Shown piece after piece: positions 4,806-63,595 of a DNA stretch of 64,000 bases. Origin of the DNA: a phage. Each line of letters opens with the position of its first letter. Positions within the stretch are counted from its first letter, which is position 1. The DNA lies in the sequence record PZ452579.1; one strand, given 5' to 3'. The notes beneath the pieces are model-generated. The model was not told the DNA's origin and made no database searches. It saw only the letters and a list, made by a program, of their open reading frames with translations. The translations under genes and the position numbers were made by a program.

Positions 4806-7800
4806 ATGGTTGACATCAAACGTAAGTTCAGGGCCGAAGATGGTCTTGACGCAGGCGGTGATAAGATAGTTAACGTTGCGCTTGCTGACCGCACAGTTGG
4901 CACCGATGGCGTGAACGTTGACTTTTTGGTGCAAGAAAACACCGTACAGAATTATGACGAGACGCGCGCGTATACAAAAGATTTTATTGTTCTTTATGAT
5001 AATCGTTTTTATCAAGCTTTAAGCGATATTCCAGCTCCGGCGGGCCCTTTCTCTTTGGCTAAATGGAAGGCAACTCGTACAGATGCAGAATGGATTACAG
5101 TTCAAGGCGGAGATTTCCAATTATCAGTAGGTAACTCTATTGCGGTTGATACTTCAGCTGGCACTGATATTAATTTCACTTTGCCTCAAAATCCTTTAGA
5201 TGGCGATACAGTTATTTTGTCTGATATTGGCGGTAGAGTAGGCTATGTAAAAGTTCAAATTACTGCAGCGGCTCAAAGTATTGTAAACTTTAGAGGACAA
5301 CAGGTTCGTTCAGTTTTAATGACGCACCCAAAATCTAAAATGGTCTTCATTTTTAGCAACCGCCTATGGCAAATGTATGTTTCTGATTACGAACGTAATG
5401 CAGTCACAGTAACTCCTGCTACGCCATATCAAGCGCAACCTAATGATTTTATCATTCGACGTTTTACATCAGCCGCTCCTATTAATATTACATTGCCTCG
5501 TAATGCTAATAATGGCGATATTATTAATTTAGTGGATTTAGACAAATTAAACCCATTATATCACACAATTGTCAAAACTTACGATGATACAACTTCTATA
5601 CGAGAAGCTGGTGTTCATGTAGCAGAAGGACGTAATACTGCGGAAGCATTCTTTGTTTATGATTCTGCCAATAGTTTATGGCGTGTTTGGGAAGGTGACC
5701 AGAAATCTCGTTTACGTATAGTTCGTAATGATACTGATTTACGCCCTAATGAAGAAGTTCTTGTTTTTGGAACTAATAATGATACAATCTCGACGGTAAA
5801 TCTTACTTTGCCTACAGATATTTTGTCTGGCGATACTGTTAAAATATCGTTGAATTATATGCGTAAAGGGCAAACTGTAAAAATTAAAGCTGCTGAAGGC
5901 GATACAATTGCTAGCAGTATTTCTTTATTACAGTTCCCAAAACGTTCGGAGTATCCACCTGATGCACAATGGGTTTCTGTTAGTGAGCTGGAATTTAATG
6001 GTGATACTTCGTATGTACCTGTACTTGAGTTAGCTTATATAGAAGATTATTCATCTGAAACAAAATATTGGGTAGTTCAACAAAACACCGTAACCGTCGA
6101 ACGAGTCGATGCATCGAGCAATAACACTCGAGCTCGTTTAGGTGTTATTGCTCTTGCTTCTCAAGCGCAAGCAAATGTCGATTTAGAAAATGCTCCTGGT
6201 AAAGAACTGGCTATTACTCCGGAAACATTAGCAAATCGTACAGCAACTGAAACTCGTCGTGGTATTGCTCGTATTGCAACAACTGCACAAGTTAACCAGA
6301 ATACCGATTTTGCATTCCAAGACGACTTGATTATTTCTCCTAAGAAATTGAACGAACGTACAGCAACTGAAACCCGTAGAGGTGTTGCTGAAGTTGCAAC
6401 TCAGGCTGAAACTAATGCTGGCACAGATGATACCACTATTATTACTCCTAAGAAATTGGATGCCCGTCAAGGTTCTGAAGTTTTATCTGGTATTGTAAAA
6501 TACACATCTACGACTGGTACTACAGCTGCTACTATTCGTGGTAATGCTGGGACTAACGTTTATAACAAAGCCGTAGATAATTTAACTATTTCTCCAAAGG
6601 CTCTTGACCAGTATAAAGCTACCCCTACTCAGCAGGGTGCAGTAATTCTTGCTATTGAAAGTGAAGTTATCGCTGGCGAATCACAAGCTGGTTGGGCTAA
6701 TGCTGTAGTGACCCCTGAAACTCTGCATAAGAAAACTTCTACTGATGGACGTATTGGTTTAATTGAAATTGCTACGCAAGCAGAAACTAACACTGGAACT
6801 GATTATACTAGAGCAGTAACGCCTAAGACGTTAAATGATAGGAAAGCTACGGAAGGATTATCTGGCATAGCCGAAATTGCTACGCAAGTTGAATTTGATA
6901 CTGGAACTGACGATACTCGTATCTCGTCTCCACTGAAAATTAAAACTCATTTTGATTCTTCTGGCCGTACTAGTGTTAATTCTGATTCCGGACTTATTGA
7001 AGAAGGAACCTTGTGGAACCATTATACTCTTGATATTTCTAAAGCAAATGAAACACAACGCGGTACACTTCGCGTAGCGACCCAGGCAGAATCTAATGCA
7101 GGAACTTTAGATGATGTTCTTATTACTCCTAAAAAGCTTTTAGGGACTAAGTCCACTGAAACGTCTGAAGGCGTAATTAAGGTTGCTACTCAGGCTGAAA
7201 CTGTAACAGGAACTTCTGCTAATACTGCTGTATCACCTAAGAATTTAAAATGGATTGTTCAATCAGAACCATCATGGACTGCTACTACGGCAATTCGTGG
7301 ATTCGTTAAAACTTCATCTGGTTCTATTACATTTGTCGGTGACGATACTCAAGGTAATACCCAGGATTTGAATCTTTATGAGAAAAATAGTTATGCTATT
7401 TCTCCATATGAATTAAACCGTGTACTTGCTAACTACTTACCGTTGAAAGCTAAAGCAGCTGATAGTAATTTGTTAGATGGTCTAGATTCTCTTCAGTTCA
7501 TCCGTAGAGACATCGACCAAACGGTTAATGGTTCTTTAAGTCTTACTAAACAGACCAACCTGAGTGCTCCTTTAGTATCTACAAGCACCGCTTCTTTTGG
7601 TTCCGAAGCATCTGTTACTCGTAGATTAACTCTTAATGACTCTAGCGGTTCCGAAATAGTTTTCACTAAAGGAACCCAATCTCTTAGTAATAAAGAGAAT
7701 TTCGTTGTTAGAGCATGGGGTAATAGCGCTACAGATGGTGACCGTGATACAGTATTTGAAGCGGGTGACGAAACCGGATACCATTTCTATTCTCAGCGCG

Positions 7801-13400: not shown

Positions 13401-13808
13401 GTTATTTCTCATGGTCATTTAGTTCAGGCGAATGACAACTATTCAACATATGTCCGCGATGTTTATGTCCGCTCTGATATTCGTGTTAAAAAGAACCTCG
13501 TTAAATTTGAAAATGCTTCTGAGAAGCTTTCTAAAATTAACGGTTACACTTATATACAGAAGCGAGGCCTAGATGAAGAAGGTAATCAGAAATGGGAACC
13601 AAACGCTGGGTTAATTGCTCAAGAAGTTCAAGCTATTTTACCTGAATTAGTTGAAGGTGATCAGGATGGTGAAGCTTTACTTCGTTTGAACTATAACGGT
13701 GTAATTGGTTTAAATACAGCTGCAATCAATGAGCATACTGCAGAAATTGCAGAACTTAAGTCAGAGATTGAAGAGCTTAAAAAATTAGTTAAATCATTGT
13801 TAAAATAA
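10497..13808 (+). CDS. 37: long tail fibre distal subunit gp37
   Basis: 1103 aa; [39 protein letters not shown]... gp37 N-terminus; C-terminal chaperone-like domain. Confidence 0.95.
13473..13805 (+). other. C-terminal intramolecular chaperone / autoproteolytic domain of gp37 (peptidase S74-like)
   Basis: SDIRVKKNL...[15 protein letters not shown]...[33 protein letters not shown] pattern typical of auto-cleaving tail-fibre chaperone domains. Confidence 0.6.
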
Positions 13809-18169: not shown

Positions 18170-18194
18170 TGCACAAAAGGGAGCCGAAGCTCCC
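18170..18194 (-). terminator. rho-independent terminator downstream of gene 52
   Basis: GGGAGC-cgaa-GCTCCC hairpin; minus strand followed by TTTTGTG. Confidence 0.55.
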
Positions 18195-18270
18195 TAATCA
18201 TGTTTGTCCAACCAATACAGCCAAATCACTAGTGCAGCTATTGCACTGAGAAATCCTAAGGCTAGGGCAC

Positions 18271-20663: not shown

Positions 20664-20692
20664 TTTGATTTCCTCATGTTGTTGATAGGACT

Positions 20693-20722
20693 ACTATACC
20701 ATAATCCTACCTTGATGTAAAC
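20693..20722 (-). promoter_or_regulatory. T4-type early promoter (-35 GTTTAC, -10 TATAGT)
   Basis: minus strand GTTTAC, 18-nt spacer, TATAGT, followed by conserved CCTATCAA leader. Confidence 0.5.
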
Positions 20723-21178: not shown

Positions 21179-21246
21179 GATGTTATCCTCTTTTAGATAG
21201 GACTACTATATCATAGTCCTACTTAGTTGTAAACACTTTTATGAAA

Positions 21247-25440: not shown

Positions 25441-25532
25441 AATATTCTCTTCAGTAGATTCCTAGGGCACTATTACTAAAGACCATATAATCTATCATCT
25501 TATGTGTAATAGTGCCTCAGGCTATTCAGGAT

Positions 25533-26633: not shown

Positions 26634-26675
26634 AATTAAGCCTTATTAAAATTAAAATGAAGCTCCCGAAGGAGC

Positions 26676-28493
26676 TTAGGACATCCATTCTTTACGAAGT
26701 TCTGAATCATCACCCATCAACATTTCAAAGAGTTCTTTCCAATTTTCAGGAAGTTTAACTACGTCGTACACAGGGTTCTGAATCATTTCACGATATTCTG
26801 ACTTTTCAAGGGAGCCTAATCCCTTGATGTATCGAATACTATGCTTAGGAAGCGTATCTTTAACTTCTTCATACTCAGCTACAGTATAAAACCATTTTTG
26901 AGTTTTGCCAATTTGTGCAATAATTACAGGTGTTTTAACAAAGCGAATACGTCCTTGTTCAAACAATTCAGGCCAATTACTAAAGAAAGCAAGCAAAGCC
27001 GGATAGATACTTCCAAGACCGTCATGATCGGCATCGGTCATAATTGCAATATTACGATAGTTCGTATTCTCTGCCTTTTCACCAAGAATAAGACCCGTGA
27101 TAGCACAGATATCAAAGAGCTCTTTGTTCTTCATCATATCAGCATATGACATACCCCAGCTATTCATCACCTTACCACGTAATGGGAATCCACCGTGTAG
27201 TTCACGGTCACGAACATCAATGAGATAACCAATTGCCGAATCACCTTCTGTTAAGAACAATGTCGTATCTGCATCTTTACCACATTGGTTAGCTTTAATA
27301 TGCTTATGAACCTTAGCTTTAGTTGCCTTTTTAGCTGCTTTAGTTTCTGCAGCCTTTTCTGCCGCCAATTTACGAGCTAATGCGGCTTCAACAATAGGCA
27401 TAATCAAGGCTTCGTTTTTAAGAAGTGCCTGAGCAATTTTCTTAGCATCTAATTGGATATGATTACGAATATCACCATACGTTGACGTTAAACGTTCTTT
27501 AGTCTGAGAATCAAAACGCATGTTGCTCATGTCTCTAATAAACATCAACATTGTGAGACATTCTTTAACACGAGCTTTAGTGACTTCAATACCCTTATAT
27601 TTCTTTTTAATACCGGGCAAAAGATGTTCGCAGATATCATCCATTACACATTCAACATGATGACCACCATTTTTAGTATGGATGTTATTCACATAAGTTA
27701 AATGACGGAAGCCATCTGGTGATGTTGTGAATGCTATAGAGACTTTATCATTTTCTTGAATGATGTTATCTTCACCAAATTGTTTAGCAAATCGTTTAAA
27801 ATTACCATCAACCTTTTTACCATTAAATGTGAACTTGATATCAGGATAAACGACTGCCAATGTTTGAAGTCGGTCTAAAGTAATATCTAAATAAATTTGA
27901 GATAAATTATGCTCTTCAAATGAAGTGAAATCAGGAGTGAAGATTACTTTAGTGCCTTTACCTTTAGATTTCTTAGAAGACCATGATTTGTTTTCCATTC
28001 CGTTTGAACAGTTAACAGTGATTTCATTTTCGCCATCTGACGTGATGCCTGTAAACAACGTAGAGAAGATATTAGTTAAACTACTCCCGACGCCGTTCAT
28101 ACCACCAGTCTTGCGTTCAGAGTCATCACCAAAGTTACCACCGGCCTTTGGAATAGTCCAGGCTGCTACAGGCCCAGGAATTTGTTCACCTGTTTGGTCG
28201 GTAACTAAACCTTGAGGAATACCACGTCCGTTATCTTCCACCGAAACTTGATTATTTTTAATTTGCACATCAATTTTATTTGCAAACTTAAATGACGTAC
28301 GAATAGCTTCATCAACCGAGTTGTCAATAATCTCATCGATTAATTTAACCAGACCAGGAACATATTCAACTTGTTGATATTTACCAAACAAAAAACGCTC
28401 ATGTGCTTCTTTAGCAGAAGAACCAATATACATACCACTACGTTTCTTAATATGTTCTACATCTGATAATACCTTAATTTCATTTTTAATCAT
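26676..28493 (-). CDS. 39: DNA topoisomerase II large subunit, single uninterrupted gene (T4 39 + 60 equivalent, GyrB-like)
   Basis: 605 aa; MIKNEIKVLSDVEHIKKRSGMYIGS... GHKL ATPase plus TOPRIM region in one ORF. Confidence 0.95.
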   Translation of the reverse strand: MIKNEIKVLSDVEHIKKRSGMYIGSSAKEAHERFLFGKYQQVEYVPGLVKLIDEIIDNSVDEAIRTSFKFANKIDVQIKNNQVSVEDNGRGIPQGLVTDQTGEQIPGPVAAWTIPKAGGNFGDDSERKTGGMNGVGSSLTNIFSTLFTGITSDGENEITVNCSNGMENKSWSSKKSKGKGTKVIFTPDFTSFEEHNLSQIYLDITLDRLQTLAVVYPDIKFTFNGKKVDGNFKRFAKQFGEDNIIQENDKVSIAFTTSPDGFRHLTYVNNIHTKNGGHHVECVMDDICEHLLPGIKKKYKGIEVTKARVKECLTMLMFIRDMSNMRFDSQTKERLTSTYGDIRNHIQLDAKKIAQALLKNEALIMPIVEAALARKLAAEKAAETKAAKKATKAKVHKHIKANQCGKDADTTLFLTEGDSAIGYLIDVRDRELHGGFPLRGKVMNSWGMSYADMMKNKELFDICAITGLILGEKAENTNYRNIAIMTDADHDGLGSIYPALLAFFSNWPELFEQGRIRFVKTPVIIAQIGKTQKWFYTVAEYEEVKDTLPKHSIRYIKGLGSLEKSEYREMIQNPVYDVVKLPENWKELFEMLMGDDSELRKEWMS

Positions 28494-28538: not shown

Positions 28539-28556
28539 CAAAAAGGGCCGAAGCCC
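28539..28556 (-). terminator. rho-independent terminator
   Basis: GGGC-ttcg-GCCC hairpin followed by TTTTT on minus strand. Confidence 0.5.
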
Positions 28557-28982
28557 TTATTTAAATTTAATTTTCTGAAGTGCATCAATTGCAGCCAAAC
28601 GCCCTTGTTCACTTTTAACTGTAATGACTACATCGCCTGATACGATCACCGAACCATCAACAAATTCTATAGAGCCTTTTTTGAAATCGACAGCTGTATC
28701 TGGTTCCGGAACTTCTTCAAAGAATTTAAATTCTGCACCATAAAGCAGAATATCACCTTGCATACTATGAATAGTTCGGCCGTAATCGCCTACGGCTTCT
28801 ACAGCAATAATCGAAACGCCGTAACCAATCATCTCTTCCACAATAAAATCTTTGGACAATAAAGTAGTATGCAGATTAGTATTAAGACGTTTACCAGTCG
28901 TATTAAGAATTCTCAAGAAATTATCTTCCTGTCCTTTGATAATACGATATTTCTTACCAACTTCAAAACCTTTAAAAGCCAT
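28557..28982 (-). CDS. hypothetical protein (39-adjacent; goF-like by position)
   Basis: 141-aa ORF. Confidence 0.5.
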   Translation of the reverse strand: MAFKGFEVGKKYRIIKGQEDNFLRILNTTGKRLNTNLHTTLLSKDFIVEEMIGYGVSIIAVEAVGDYGRTIHSMQGDILLYGAEFKFFEEVPEPDTAVDFKKGSIEFVDGSVIVSGDVVITVKSEQGRLAAIDALQKIKFK

Positions 28983-29861: not shown

Positions 29862-30386
29862 TCATTTTAGCAAAATAAAATCAACTTGTTCTGCCAATGA
29901 ACGTCTGAACATTAATTGACAACTTCCGAGGATGAAATCAGGTGCTTCATAGACCGCGATGTAGTATCCTTTAGCTTTCAAGAGTTCAACATCCACCTGG
30001 TCATCAAACCATGCATAAACCGCGTCAACACTTTCAAATCCAAAATAGAACCCTTGAGCCCAATCTTCACTCAATTCAAATGTATGCTCAATTCTATAGT
30101 ATCTTAAGATATTTTGTTCAAGGAGTTTGTCTTCATTTACTGTAGGACGATTAGGGACATTATAGTTGTCGCCGTGATGGTAGAAGTTACCTGAGAGTAT
30201 TCCATGCTTATCAAGGAACTCCCATGTTTCTTCAGAGTTGTCGGTGCCCGACCAACCGTATGGCGAACGAGGTTCTTTATTCCAAGAGGTTTCCCAAATT
30301 CTGACGGCTTTACCGTCTTCGATAGCAATTCCTGGTAATGATTCACGTTGAGTACAAAAACTACGTTCTACGCGGTAAACTAACAT
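29862..30386 (-). CDS. hypothetical protein
   Basis: 174-aa ORF with own early promoter and SD inside a hairpin. Confidence 0.55.
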   Translation of the reverse strand: MLVYRVERSFCTQRESLPGIAIEDGKAVRIWETSWNKEPRSPYGWSGTDNSEETWEFLDKHGILSGNFYHHGDNYNVPNRPTVNEDKLLEQNILRYYRIEHTFELSEDWAQGFYFGFESVDAVYAWFDDQVDVELLKAKGYYIAVYEAPDFILGSCQLMFRRSLAEQVDFILLK

Positions 30387-30412
30387 ATTATTCTCCTCTG
30401 GTTGATATGGTT

Positions 30413-30441
30413 ATAATATCAAAACCAGAGGAGAAGTAAAC
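30413..30441 (-). promoter_or_regulatory. T4-type early promoter nested in SD-sequestering hairpin
   Basis: minus strand GTTTAC, 17 nt, TATTAT; 11-bp inverted repeat CTCCTCTGGTT (30393..30403) / AACCAGAGGAG (30423..30433) flanks the -10 and includes the SD. Confidence 0.55.
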
Positions 30442-30445
30442 AACT

Positions 30446-31918: not shown

Positions 31919-31948
31919 ATTATACTCCAACCATCCTTGGTTGTAAAC
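31919..31948 (-). promoter_or_regulatory. T4-type early promoter upstream of paralog C
   Basis: minus strand GTTTAC, 18 nt, TATAAT; spacer contains palindrome CAACCA-aggA-TGGTTG. Confidence 0.5.
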
Positions 31949-35830: not shown

Positions 35831-36412
35831 CTAAAAATTCAACATTTTCAAATGAATGATTTTGTATAATCGAGATAAAGGGTCATATTCTAAGTCTTCA
35901 ATTTCCACAATCTCAAATCGAGAGATGCCTGAGACCATGTACTCTTGTTCAGATTCAATCATATCTAGGACGTCAACACGCGTTTCTTCCATAACATGCT
36001 TAGGGTTCTTTCCGGCAAGTACAATGTTAATCATGTTTTGGTAGTAATCAAAAATGAATGGAGCATTCCTGAGACTAAGAATAGTGTACGTCTGATATTC
36101 CCATCTCCCGGAGAATTGACGAGCTGTACTGAAATCAGTTGTGAACGATGTTACTCGTCCAGGAGACCAATGGCATCCAACAGAAAGAAGGGAAAGACGT
36201 TCTACTTCTTCTGGAGTTACACCACGGTAGAGTTCTACTGGTACTGTAGAAGTCATATGCTTACGAACAAGATGGTCTAATTCATAGTGGAAATCCGGGT
36301 CTTCCTTAGAATCGGTGCAAGCCCAGAGAATGTTTTGTTCTTGGCGGGTGAATTTGCTATCAATCAGATTTGTTAGGTATTCGCGTTCTTGAAGTTCAGA
36401 TTGACATGTCAT
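35831..36412 (-). CDS. modB: ADP-ribosyltransferase ModB
   Basis: 193 aa; LYRGVTPEE...EQEYMVSG; parallel motif layout to ModA. Confidence 0.8.
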   Translation of the reverse strand: MTCQSELQEREYLTNLIDSKFTRQEQNILWACTDSKEDPDFHYELDHLVRKHMTSTVPVELYRGVTPEEVERLSLLSVGCHWSPGRVTSFTTDFSTARQFSGRWEYQTYTILSLRNAPFIFDYYQNMINIVLAGKNPKHVMEETRVDVLDMIESEQEYMVSGISRFEIVEIEDLEYDPLSRLYKIIHLKMLNF

Positions 36413-36628
36413 GATAGACCTCCATTTAAAGATAAGCCTATCATAACATGAGAGGAGGGAATGTAAACTACTTTTTAAGCTTTCCTACTAAAGGTCCATC
36501 AGGGCCAGGTTGTTCTAACATGAATAAGGACGCTTTAAAAAGCAATGTCAACCCTTTCACCATTCGATACCATGTCTCAAAGTCTTTTTCCTTGATTTCT
36601 AGTAAGAATTTCTCTTTAAATTTCTCTT

Positions 36629-37957: not shown

Positions 37958-37987
37958 CAAAAAAAAAAAGGAATCCCGAAGGATTCC
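37958..37987 (-). terminator. strong rho-independent terminator
   Basis: GGAATCC-ttcg-GGATTCC hairpin followed by an 11-T run on minus strand. Confidence 0.75.
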
Positions 37988-37996
37988 TTAAATTAT

Positions 37997-38233: not shown

Positions 38234-38278
38234 AATTAACTCCTTTGTTGTTTAATTACAGGTGTATTTATAACTCAA

Positions 38279-41776: not shown

Positions 41777-41839
41777 TTTAACTCCTTAGTTGATTTGATA
41801 GGACTACTATACTATAGTCCATCTATAATGTAAACAAGT

Positions 41840-42589: not shown

Positions 42590-42778
42590 TTATCGAAAAT
42601 CTGCTTCGAAAACTTTCTCGTCATTAACAAATGCTTTAACTAATGCGTTGTTCACTTCAGCAAGTTGTACCGCAACCCACTCGATTTCTTCGCGATCACC
42701 TGATAACATGATATCTTTAGTGAACATATTATCATTTTTAAACCAGCCAATAAAAGTAACTTTAGTTAATTTGCTCAT
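42590..42778 (-). CDS. dmd: Dmd antitoxin-like protein (inhibitor of RnlA/LsoA-type toxins)
   Basis: Start set at ATG 42778 (ATGA overlap with upstream stop): MSKLTKVTFIGWFKNDNMFTKDI...ALVKAF matches T4 Dmd. Confidence 0.75.
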   Translation of the reverse strand: MSKLTKVTFIGWFKNDNMFTKDIMLSGDREEIEWVAVQLAEVNNALVKAFVNDEKVFEADFR

Positions 42779-43092
42779 ATTTCCTCGCAAAATGCCCATT
42801 CAGCGTGATAAACTGTAGCGCCTTTAGTATCATTCATTTGAACTACGTCTACCGGAGAAATTACTCGATAGAGACGTGGTTCACCTCCATAAGAGCGTGC
42901 TGCTCGTCCTGCATAAATCTTTGCTAAACCGATATCTTCAGTAAAGAATACACGATCCAAGTTTTTCTTACGTCCAGTTTCAGACAGAACTCCTGTTTCC
43001 TCAGGAGGACAAAGCATGTTTTCGATGTTAGCTGAACTACTTGAACCGTGATAAAAAATCTTAAATTCTGCTTTACAATCGATGGTTTTCAT
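42775..43092 (-). CDS. hypothetical protein
   Basis: 105-aa ORF; FYHGSSS motif; own promoter-in-hairpin upstream. Confidence 0.5.
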   Translation of the reverse strand: MKTIDCKAEFKIFYHGSSSSANIENMLCPPEETGVLSETGRKKNLDRVFFTEDIGLAKIYAGRAARSYGGEPRLYRVISPVDVVQMNDTKGATVYHAEWAFCEEI

Positions 43093-43118
43093 TTTGTTCT
43101 CCAGTAGTTGATAGGTCT

Positions 43119-43147
43119 ATAATAACACAACTACTGGAGAAGTAAAC
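43119..43147 (-). promoter_or_regulatory. T4-type early promoter nested in SD-sequestering hairpin
   Basis: minus strand GTTTAC, 17 nt, TATTAT; 12-bp inverted repeat CTCCAGTAGTTG (43099..43110) / CAACTACTGGAG (43128..43139); 3' arm contains SD GGAG. Confidence 0.55.
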
Positions 43148-43522
43148 TTAAAAACGTAATTTAGATATATCTGCGTTGATTTCGTTTTGGTTTGCATCGT
43201 ATGCAATTAAACGAACCGCTTTAGATGGGTCATTCAATGCATAGAAATGATGGAACATTGCTCGAACGATATCACCATTTACGAGTTCTACTTGGATAGG
43301 AGAACCTTTTTCGAGTTGGAAATGTTCATAAGCTTTGATGGTTCGTAGATAATCAAGTTTTTGATTTCCGGCTCCAACTATTTGTACGATACGTTTGCCC
43401 ATGTTTTCCATACGAGATACAATAGTTTTAGGAGCAAGAATAACGTAGGTTGCCAGTGGAGAAACTACTTCAACAGTTGTGTTTTCGGTGATTGCAGTAA
43501 AAATTGCTTGAGACATATTCAT
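43148..43522 (-). CDS. hypothetical protein
   Basis: 124-aa ORF. Confidence 0.55.
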   Translation of the reverse strand: MNMSQAIFTAITENTTVEVVSPLATYVILAPKTIVSRMENMGKRIVQIVGAGNQKLDYLRTIKAYEHFQLEKGSPIQVELVNGDIVRAMFHHFYALNDPSKAVRLIAYDANQNEINADISKLRF

Positions 43523-43588
43523 AATGTTTTCCTCTTGGTTGGTGTAAGTTCATCATATCATGCCTAGAGGAAGATGTAAACACCGAAA

Positions 43589-43610
43589 GGAGACCGAAGT
43601 CTCCTTTTTA
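43589..43610. terminator. hairpin terminator (best T-tract on plus strand) next to gene 41 stop
   Basis: GGAGAC-cgaa-GTCTCC followed by TTTTTATT on plus strand; minus-strand side has only TTTCGG. Confidence 0.45.
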
Positions 43611-45062: not shown

Positions 45063-45425
45063 TTAAAAGAATTTAAATTTTTTCTTGGTTCGTTCATTAA
45101 AAGCTTGTTGTACTTGCATTGTAACACATTTTTCAACATGTGGTGCAAGTTCTGCTTTTCTGTCCTGGTCAAGAACTGCAAAGTCCATTACGATTTTACC
45201 ATCAACCCAGTCTAGTTTTGTAATATAGACTATATGATGGGAACCGTCTTCAAGTGTAATCAGAATCTCTTGAATGACATTTTCCATTGCTGAACGGATA
45301 ATTTTAAGAGATTCATTAAACACTCGTTCTTTGCGAATGTCTTCCCCTTCCGAAGAAGGGGATTCATCAACGATTTCTAGATTTAAATCATCGAGATTAT
45401 TCATCGAAATCTTCCATTTCGTCAA
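45063..45425 (-). CDS. 40: head assembly protein gp40-like
   Basis: 120-aa ORF between 41 and uvsX. Confidence 0.6.
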   Translation of the reverse strand: MTKWKISMNNLDDLNLEIVDESPSSEGEDIRKERVFNESLKIIRSAMENVIQEILITLEDGSHHIVYITKLDWVDGKIVMDFAVLDQDRKAELAPHVEKCVTMQVQQAFNERTKKKFKFF

Positions 45426-55968: not shown

Positions 55969-56049
55969 TTAATTTCCTTTAGACGAGTTATTGTCTTTTG
56001 TTTGTTGATGAACTTATTATACTCCAAATGGGACCGAAGTCCCATTGCT

Positions 56050-63392: not shown

Positions 63393-63422
63393 GCAAAAAA
63401 AAAAGGAACTCCGAAGAGTTCC
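63393..63422 (-). terminator. rho-independent terminator upstream of gene 47
   Basis: GGAACT-cttcgg-AGTTCC hairpin followed by a 10-T run on minus strand. Confidence 0.7.
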
Positions 63423-63595
63423 TATCCACATAGTACACCGTACAGAGGCTCATTTGAACTTTTAAATCGAATGGGCTTGTATGTAATAGTTCCTTCGGCT
63501 TTAGCTTTATCATAAGACTCTTTAAAACGTCTCATTCTTTCTGCTTTGCCTTTACGGATTTTATCGAAATTTTCAGAAGTCGGGATGTTCGTCAT
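63422..63595 (-). CDS. small basic protein (not in ORF track)
   Basis: 57 aa MTNIPTSENFDKIRKGKAERMRRFKESYDKAKAEGTITYKPIRFKSSNEPLYGVLCG; ends at the terminator. Confidence 0.45.
   Translation of the reverse strand: MTNIPTSENFDKIRKGKAERMRRFKESYDKAKAEGTITYKPIRFKSSNEPLYGVLCG

Follow-up and report, generated by a model that had tools for sequence, protein, structure and literature searches.

In phage T4, the genes e, soc, 49, I-TevI/II/III and segB, like mobE of phage Aeh1, give rise to long transcripts on which a hairpin masks the Shine-Dalgarno sequence (SD) and/or the AUG, and to transcripts from a proximal promoter that start within the hairpin, lack its 5' strand and are translated (PMC3014915, PMC2988022). 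At gene e the hairpin cuts lysozyme synthesis about 100-fold (PMC3014915), and the genes under such nested-promoter control are late genes, according to a review (PMC2988022). A second described system, the PeSL cassettes of T4-type phages (Arbiol et al. 2010; Comeau et al. 2014), consists of compact intergenic units that recur within genomes and go with gene insertion and deletion. Each carries an early promoter behind A/T-rich DNA, a stem-loop, and an SD with its ATG; the stem-loop takes one of five positions (upstream of the -35, over it, between the two boxes, over the -10, or from the -10 to +1), all ending before the transcription start, with the SD drawn as a separate downstream element, and is read in those papers as a terminator/attenuator and a recombination target. 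Here we describe early promoters, in a 64,000-nucleotide stretch of phage DNA (record PZ452579.1; hereafter the window), that are nested in a hairpin whose 3' strand holds the SD. The 2 kb surrounding the finding share 97-99% identity with many genomes of Mosigvirus (RB69 group, Tevenvirinae), and the phage is an RB69-like T-even member of that genus. We favor, with moderate confidence, the interpretation that a nested early promoter combined with an SD-masking hairpin gates translation of a motB.2-like gene, the ORF040c-dmd pair and modB.

The window spans the early/middle gene region downstream of rIIA, whose genes lie on the minus strand, and the hairpin sites are therefore read on that strand, as are the promoters, hairpin arms and genes of sites 1-4 below; window coordinates equal those of record OL960576 plus 23013. 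Scanning for the pattern GTTTAC-N15-19-TAnnnT gave 16 minus-strand and 3 plus-strand matches. Allowing one mismatch in the -35 and requiring an SD and an open reading frame, we kept 18 early promoter/translation-start cassettes. These are compact (~60 bp) and share one layout: an A-rich upstream element, GTTTAC, a spacer of 17-18 nt, TAnnnT, 6 nt, a conserved A(+1)TCAAC-type start, then the SD and the ATG; the leader is ~20 nt long and the ATG follows +1 by ~20-25 nt. In most cases only a few nucleotides separate the -35 from the stop codon of the upstream gene. On the model of the T4 early-promoter consensus, we took the seventh nucleotide past the -10 as the transcription start. Four cassettes are named here by promoter label, 30441 (site 1), 43147 (site 2), 36468 (site 3) and 43581 (site 4), and all four match early promoters independently predicted in RB69 with a hidden Markov model (Pe:7443, Pe:20537, Pe:13466 and Pe:20971; Nolan et al. 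2006, supplement).

Site 1 is the promoter of the motB.2-like gene. Behind the -35 hexamer GTTTAC (30436..30441; RB69 Pe:7443), the first 13 nt of the 17-nt spacer, TTCTCCTCTGGTT (30423..30435), include the anti-SD motif TTCTCC and form a 5' arm; the 3' arm, AACCAGAGGAGAA (30391..30403), carries the SD (GGAG, 30396-30393), and in an inverted-repeat search the two arms are complementary at 13/13 nt. The -10 hexamer TATTAT (30413..30418) lies in the apical region of the hairpin, where it is partly paired with ATATCA in an inner 6-bp stem, and the predicted start, the A of ATCAAC at 30406, falls inside the loop. With fold energies of minus-strand RNA compared to 200 shuffles per site, RNA 30446-30380 folds at -23.9 kcal/mol against a shuffle mean of -9.1 +/- 2.4 (z -6.1), no shuffle being as stable (0/200). 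The site's own spacer/leader duplex amounts to -22.5 kcal/mol, and RNA that begins at the predicted +1 folds at 0 kcal/mol. In OL960576.1 this same hairpin is annotated as a rho-independent terminator (7373-7417, equal to 30386-30430 here), which is probably a mis-annotation, as the hairpin has no U-tract and overlaps a promoter.

Site 2, the promoter of the ORF040c-dmd pair, repeats this architecture with other sequence. Its -35 GTTTAC (43142..43147; RB69 Pe:20537) leads into a 17-nt spacer whose first 14 nt, TTCTCCAGTAGTTG (43128..43141), pair with CAACTACTGGAGAA (43097..43110), which holds the SD (GGAG, 43102-43099), in a perfect core of 14 bp (14/14 complementary). The loop contains the -10 hexamer TATTAT (43119..43124), an extended -10 preceded by TGT, and the predicted start, again the A of ATCAAC (43112). 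The region folds at -21.5 kcal/mol (z -4.9; 0/200 shuffles as stable), with an own spacer/leader duplex of -22.9 kcal/mol and 0 kcal/mol for RNA from the predicted +1. Sites 1 and 2 thus share GTTTAC, a 17-nt spacer that opens with the 5' arm, TATTAT, 6 nt and A(+1)TCAAC, and GGAGAA closes the 3' arm in both, 5-6 nt short of the ATG. Spacer and leader pair in a site-specific way: cross-pairs among the 18 promoters average -5.2 +/- 3.1 kcal/mol, with a minimum of -16.3. A preliminary description of this DNA had placed hairpins at 30393..30433 and 43099..43139, with the 5' arm in the promoter spacer and the SD in the 3' arm; sequence, repeat search and folding bear this out beyond chance, the arms being slightly longer than first given (13 and 14 bp).

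A third hairpin, at the modB promoter (site 3; -35 GTTTAC at 36468-36463, RB69 Pe:13466), reaches the same end by a shifted register. In minimum free energy structures the 5' arm CATGTTATGATAGGCT (36435..36450) is built from the final 5 spacer nucleotides, the -10 TATGAT (36445-36440) and the discriminator, and it pairs with a 3' side (36405..36423) that includes both the SD (GGAGG, 36423-36419) and the modB AUG (36412-36410); the predicted start, 36433, lies in the loop. The hairpin (36450-36435 with 36423-36405) has -22.9 kcal/mol (z -4.0), matched by 1/200 shuffles. A hairpin at 36413..36455 had been proposed from CCTCC/GGAGG arms. An SD-masking structure does exist there, but that pairing is generic (-9.2 kcal/mol, ranking sixth in its row) and was rejected in favor of the stronger -10-to-SD/AUG arms. 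The proposed hairpin at 43525..43570 fell away altogether: at site 4, the ORF041c promoter behind the gene-41 UUCG terminator (43525..43581), the weak TTCCTCT.GG / CC.AGAGGAA pairing folds at chance level (-11.9 kcal/mol, z -0.86, 33/200 shuffles as good). Structurally, two of the sites are well established and a third holds in altered form.

The two RNA species expected at each site differ in predicted SD accessibility. RNA entering from upstream has a probability of an unpaired SD of 0.00 at 30441, 0.00 at 43147 and 0.06 at 36468, versus 0.36, 0.75 and 0.24 in RNA from +1, and the bare leaders from +1 fold at only 0 to -3 kcal/mol. The folding of both forms agrees with the earlier proposal that the SD is locked on read-through and freer on transcripts from the internal promoter. 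At sequence level, all three predicted starts (30406, 43112 and 36433) lie inside the loop. Read-through into the three sites is expected, since a terminator scan of the window found none between these promoters and their upstream genes, and at the hairpin sites the upstream gene stops 0-4 nt short of the -35: 4 nt for the MotB-family gene (PF17613, 30446..30865) upstream of site 1, and 0 nt for the RB69ORF041c-family gene (43148..43522), whose stop codon abuts the -35 of site 2. Early or middle promoters are present farther upstream at 31948, 37949, 37555 and 47278. The stems of sites 1-3 are far above the stability range reported to block initiation.

We propose the following mechanism. Promoter DNA would also encode one half of an RNA hairpin, the 5' strand; the 3' strand would be the SD, joined at modB by the AUG. 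A polymerase arriving from the upstream gene would transcribe both strands, and a local stem of -21 to -24 kcal/mol would form once the SD emerges, so that 30S subunits could not bind. A polymerase from the nested promoter would start in the loop and yield a leader without the 5' strand, leaving the SD free. The proteins would then be translated only from their own immediate-early transcripts, and read-through RNA made in the delayed-early or middle mode would carry the cistron silently to downstream genes. Where transcription starts, whether and how much read-through RNA is made, and how translation responds are what we infer here. The functional reading is that of the preliminary description restricted to a subset of genes; it seems reasonable, and the evolutionary comparisons appear to support it.

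The genes concerned encode a 174-aa motB.2-like protein (29862..30386; phrog_1106, function unknown; 35% identity to T4 MotB.2), a 105-aa protein of the RB69ORF040c family (42775..43092; phrog_2110) and a 193-aa ModB ADP-ribosyltransferase homologue (35831..36412; phrog_832 and the OL960576 annotation). Pfam gave zero matches for these three proteins, and PHROGs gave an identified product for ModB alone. The TGA of the ORF040c homologue overlaps the dmd ATG (ATGA, 42778-42775), and on account of this overlap the translation of dmd, which encodes the Dmd antitoxin, is probably coupled to that of ORF040c, the gene that the site-2 hairpin would gate.

Comparison with relatives points to selection on the pairing. 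At site 1, phage ECCR664 carries a G:C to A:U change together with U:A to U:G and retains all 13 pairs. At site 2, O157 typing phage 13 has replaced an A:U pair by G:C through substitutions in both arms, and phage JM17 shows an A.C intermediate with a single substitution. Homologues of motB.2 were collected by tblastn on a phage collection, that is, by protein homology and not by structure; a protein-seeded scan of IMG/VR for motB.2-like relatives gave three near-identical loci only. The promoters of this family mask the SD in five genera with differing arms. In Mosigvirus, Tequatrovirus and Dhakavirus the 5' arm is the spacer: T4 motB.2 and two relatives form a 17-bp bulged hairpin from spacer to SD, and the Dhakavirus promoter pairs TTCTCCTCATG/CATGAGGAGAA. 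In Kanagawavirus PEi20 and Mosugukvirus PM2 it is the -10/discriminator (GACCTCC or GCCTTCC) that faces the SD and AUG, for example GACCTCC against GGAGGTC. SD masking is retained across the motB.2 family while the masking arm has moved. Outside that family, the design of site 3, a -10-to-SD/AUG hairpin, recurs at T4 modB, with a probability of an unpaired SD of 0.00 in read-through RNA versus 0.58 in its own transcript, and T4 imm.1 has a weaker version of it. A pattern scan of IMG/VR with GTTTACTTCTCC-N11-TAnnnT found many T4-like cassettes whose stems run 4-8 bp past the anti-SD core, with extensions that differ from one cassette to another (TGTAGATG/CATCTACA, TCTAGTTG/CAACTAGA, GGTGGTT/AACCACT, TCATG/CATGA and others). 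The sense RNA is also more stable than the antisense, owing to G.U pairs, at T4 motB.2 (-23.7 versus -14.5 kcal/mol) and at modB (-18.8 versus -9.7 kcal/mol).

The hairpin at the ORF040c promoter further alternates with a terminator. In five phages, namely LF82-8 (Mosigvirus), Dhakavirus IME281, Gaprivervirus SP18, Mosugukvirus PM2 and Kanagawavirus KLB31, ORF040c comes right after the gene-41 terminator, and the 5' arm is absent in 5/5. LF82-8 and SP18 retain the CAACTACTGGAGAA leader, and the leaders of IME281, PM2 and KLB31 differ. The 5' arm is present only where ORF041c lies upstream and there is no terminator. Taken together, the comparative data support selection on the pairing and an association of the hairpin with an absent upstream terminator.

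Gene content also varies at these cassettes. Shigella phage phi25-307 has no motB.2-like gene; there the cassette is fused to cef, with a 9-bp TTCTCCTCT/AGAGGAGAA pairing kept. Phage LF82-8 has no ORF041c, the loss falling exactly at the cassette border. Both changes fit modular shuffling of the PeSL type.

How general is SD masking? The preliminary description had called the architecture recurrent and had coupled translation of each gene to its own promoter. Recurrence holds for a subset; the coupling of each gene does not, nor does a general tendency. In a broader comparison of 89 distinct GTTTAC promoters, in which own pairs were set against cross-pairs and which we consider a fair test, the own spacer/leader duplex reaches -16 kcal/mol or below in 17% of promoters versus 2% of cross-pairs, and -20 kcal/mol or below in 6.7% versus 0.25%. 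Within the window, ~7/18 early promoters lie in a hairpin whose formation requires read-through RNA; roughly half of these hairpins mask the SD.

Several results weigh against the proposed gating or narrow its reach. The SD-masking feature occurs at 3/18 early promoters of the window. In a swap control in which the 5' parts were exchanged among the 18 cassettes, three native combinations came first, with no overall shift (p = 0.34). A set of 59 non-redundant promoters, drawn from the window, T4 and contigs of IMG/VR, gave a marginal shift (Wilcoxon p = 0.14, binomial p = 0.036); SD masking as a general rule of early promoters was therefore rejected and the word 'subset' kept. Four other window promoters (41835, 21234, 20722 and 1001) have hairpins just as good in which the SD stays free, and the hairpin as such may be what is selected, a G-rich SD being a convenient partner in AT-rich DNA. 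At T4 motB.2 the SD is predicted to be paired in the promoter-proximal RNA as well (probability unpaired 0.01). The JS09 clade tolerates one C.A mismatch in the site-1 stem. A covariation analysis found the 11 stem pairs 92% paired, 6 of them changed on both sides, with a score of 0.295 versus 0.121 +/- 0.028 for shuffles, a count that is inflated and partly circular because the rows of the alignment (A1) were chosen by pairing energy. Comparing sense with antisense stability as a test for RNA-level function gave no clear asymmetry overall (p = 0.11 in one comparison, 12 versus 6 in another). Finally, in RB69 TransTerm calls a weak terminator of 5 bp ahead of the modB promoter (13477-13490). 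The window equivalent (36490-36503) has a C.A mismatch in the stem and a poor tail; a terminator at this place is doubtful and, if active, would lower read-through into site 3.

The SD-free hairpins just mentioned form a class of their own (41780-41823, 21180-21236, 20666-20711 and 963-990; -11.5 to -16.4 kcal/mol). Their stem forms between GATAGGRCTA in the spacer and TAGYCCTATC in the start-site region, and the -10 lies in the loop. Members show a compensatory difference (GGACT/AGTCC versus GGGCT/AGCCC), and similar hairpins are found at T4 dmd and in Aeromonas phage 44RR.

Because such SD-free hairpins exist, and because the ORF040c hairpin alternates with terminators, a generic PeSL boundary hairpin stays a serious alternative to SD masking, if on balance an unlikely one. 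The structure would then attenuate or insulate upstream transcription, or protect the 3' end of the upstream message, with the SD involved incidentally; as a variant, an untranslated cistron could invite Rho-dependent termination, so that SD masking would itself cause the attenuation. PeSL stem-loops inside or overlapping T4-type early promoters have been described, and one from RB49 cut downstream lacZ expression like a strong terminator (PMC2839356, PMC4122927). Comparable hairpins off the SD, at four window promoters and T4 dmd, are in line with this alternative; the OL960576 annotators read the site-1 hairpin as a rho-independent terminator; and the exchange with a true terminator across lineages would equally suit an insulator or 3'-stabilizer. 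Yet the hairpins have no U-tract and loops of 17-19 nt, and those of sites 1 and 2 were called neither by our terminator scan of the window nor in the RB69 TransTerm list (7.4 and 20.5 kb), anatomy on which the intrinsic-terminator annotation was rejected. Hairpins that touch the SD at all always cover the whole of it, in the window, in T4 and in the protein-defined homologues, and the persistence of SD masking in five genera of the motB.2 family despite a moved 5' arm would be unexpected if the SD were a bystander.

It is considerably less probable that the hairpin exists to shield the GGAG of the SD from RegB, and from follow-up RNase E/G, on read-through RNA. Downstream message would thereby be spared, and promoter-proximal transcripts with a free GGAG would be cut fast. 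The strong-site consensus of RegB is GGAGRAYARAA, and a structured (double-stranded) motif is reported to resist the enzyme (PMC3014915). The 3' arms are near-perfect strong sites, with 11/11 matches at 43147 (GGAGAACAAAA) and 10/11 at 30441 (GGAGAATAATA), and a regB gene of a Mosigvirus was found. RegB-like SDs are, however, equally common at window promoters without a hairpin (1001 and 37949), and the modB-type and Kanagawavirus/Mosugukvirus hairpins mask GGAGG, which fits the consensus poorly. A RegB role is compatible with translational masking and hard to separate from it; protection of GGAG is plausible as an added effect.

A role at the level of DNA (promoter function, a cruciform or cassette recombination), or chance complementarity between a pyrimidine-rich spacer and a purine-rich SD, seems very improbable to us. 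The cassette sequence does recur, at 821 places in 266 records, and genes are gained or lost exactly at cassettes, as in phi25-307 and LF82-8. Anti-SD 4-mers are enriched in spacers (5/18 in the window, p = 0.03; 4/8 in T4, p = 0.004), and the two perfect Watson-Crick stems cannot tell the strands apart. Against both versions, the complementarity runs 7-8 bp past the SD/anti-SD core with a sequence that differs by site, compensatory substitutions occur (ECCR664 and O157 typing phage 13), and several homologous hairpins need G.U pairs and are stable only as sense RNA.

Least probable of all, and rejected on geometry, is translational coupling, by which the hairpin would block independent initiation and ribosomes ending at the upstream stop would melt the anti-SD base of the stem on read-through RNA, making downstream translation proportional to that of the upstream gene: the stops do sit close to the -35 (0 nt away at 43147, 4 nt at 30441) and the anti-SD is the nearest stem segment, but a terminating ribosome covers ~9 nt past the stop codon and would open at most 3 bp at 43147 and none at 30441 or at 36468 (5' arm 18 nt downstream), and nearby stop codons are found at nearly all early promoters of the window, hairpin or not.

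Returning to SD masking by the nested early promoter, the hairpin may have roles besides it, among them attenuation or insulation, RegB protection and stabilization of the 3' end of the upstream message. We offer, tentatively and as a possibility that we hold with less confidence than the gating of the three sites, that promoter-embedded SD-masking hairpins act as a general T-even 'translational insulator', evolutionarily interchangeable with terminators. They would confine dose-sensitive immediate-early proteins (ModB, MotB-family proteins and the Dmd operon) to their own short-lived transcripts, allow silent polycistronic transcription and hide the GGAG from RegB. Were this so, the spacer would be under dual selection, as promoter DNA and as RNA anti-SD. 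If the gating reading itself is correct, promoter choice would set the translatability of T-even early genes as well, not of late genes alone. It would amount to a cis-acting, repressor-free shutoff of immediate-early protein translation once the early promoters close. It would also explain why some early promoters have pyrimidine-rich anti-SD spacers and why hairpins without a U-tract have been annotated as 'terminators', a label that annotation should then avoid, and it would give a function to one subclass of PeSL stem-loops. For phage engineering, inserting or deleting a gene at such a cassette would be expected to alter translation of the next gene. The natural compensatory and 5'-arm-less variants would serve as ready-made test constructs.

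Other inverted repeats were seen in the window. Hairpins with a UUCG tetraloop are a recognized feature of T4 intergenic regions, and nine occur here on the minus strand (63404-63423, 56027-56046, 45343-45362, 43586-43607, 37968-37989, 28543-28558, 26660-26677, 18178-18195 and 1483-1500), several followed by T-runs as in terminators. A 16-nt inverted repeat (25461-25521, minus strand; 88% complementary, 29-nt loop) is intergenic upstream of the rIIA.1 homologue and stops ~20 nt before the ATG, leaving the SD uncovered. A perfect 12-bp inverted repeat, GAGCAATAACAC / GTGTTATTGCTC, with a 14-nt loop lies at 6116-6153. The soc gene of the window has its late promoter, TATAAATA, at 38272, followed by a 13-bp stem at 38264-38227 (CACCTGTAATTAA / TTAATTATGGGTG, minus strand) that covers the AUG and has the SD in its loop, an arrangement already known from T4 late genes and built on the same principle. 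In the literature searched we found SD-masking hairpins for late genes only and none at early promoters; older T4 literature may mention one. The same literature yielded no usable account of T4 promoter P8.1 and no usable genome-wide T4 data on start sites or ribosome profiling.

How, then, do the sites compare with the systems already described? Like T4 nested-promoter control, the window stems (-23.9, -21.5 and -22.9 kcal/mol) enclose the SD and, at modB, the AUG as well, and at sequence level the predicted +1 lies in the loop, so that own transcripts would lack the 5' strand. Unlike it, the nested promoter is not a late one (gp55, TATAAATA) but of the sigma-70 type (GTTTAC-N17-TAnnnT) and serves early genes, and it is the spacer or the -10 region that forms the 5' arm. 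Timing is predicted to be reversed as well: translated first, silent later. Because promoters and genes are early and not late, we file the sites as a variant of T4 nested-promoter control.

With PeSL cassettes the sites share a sigma-70-like early promoter, an A/T-rich upstream region, and an SD and start codon in one short unit, and also repetition of the cassette (2-6 places per record among the rows listed) and loss of open reading frames at its borders (phi25-307 and LF82-8). They differ in that the SD-masking stems run from the spacer or -10 past +1 into the SD or AUG and have no U-tract; the SD-free hairpins (41835, 21234, 20722 and 1001) lie within or beside the promoter positions described for PeSL. 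In a broad sense, the sites would be PeSL cassette members whose stem-loop register goes beyond the five listed. They resemble intrinsic terminators, including the T-even UUCG-tetraloop kind, in being stable boundary hairpins, and the ORF040c hairpin and the terminator share a position across lineages; they depart from them in their long loops and in A-rich tails (TAATATG and CAAAATG) with no U-run. With RegB sites they have in common a GGAG in an early SD, as in T4, here predicted to be double-stranded in read-through RNA. Overall, the SD-masking early-promoter hairpins are a variant of known T-even mechanisms and not a new kind of system.

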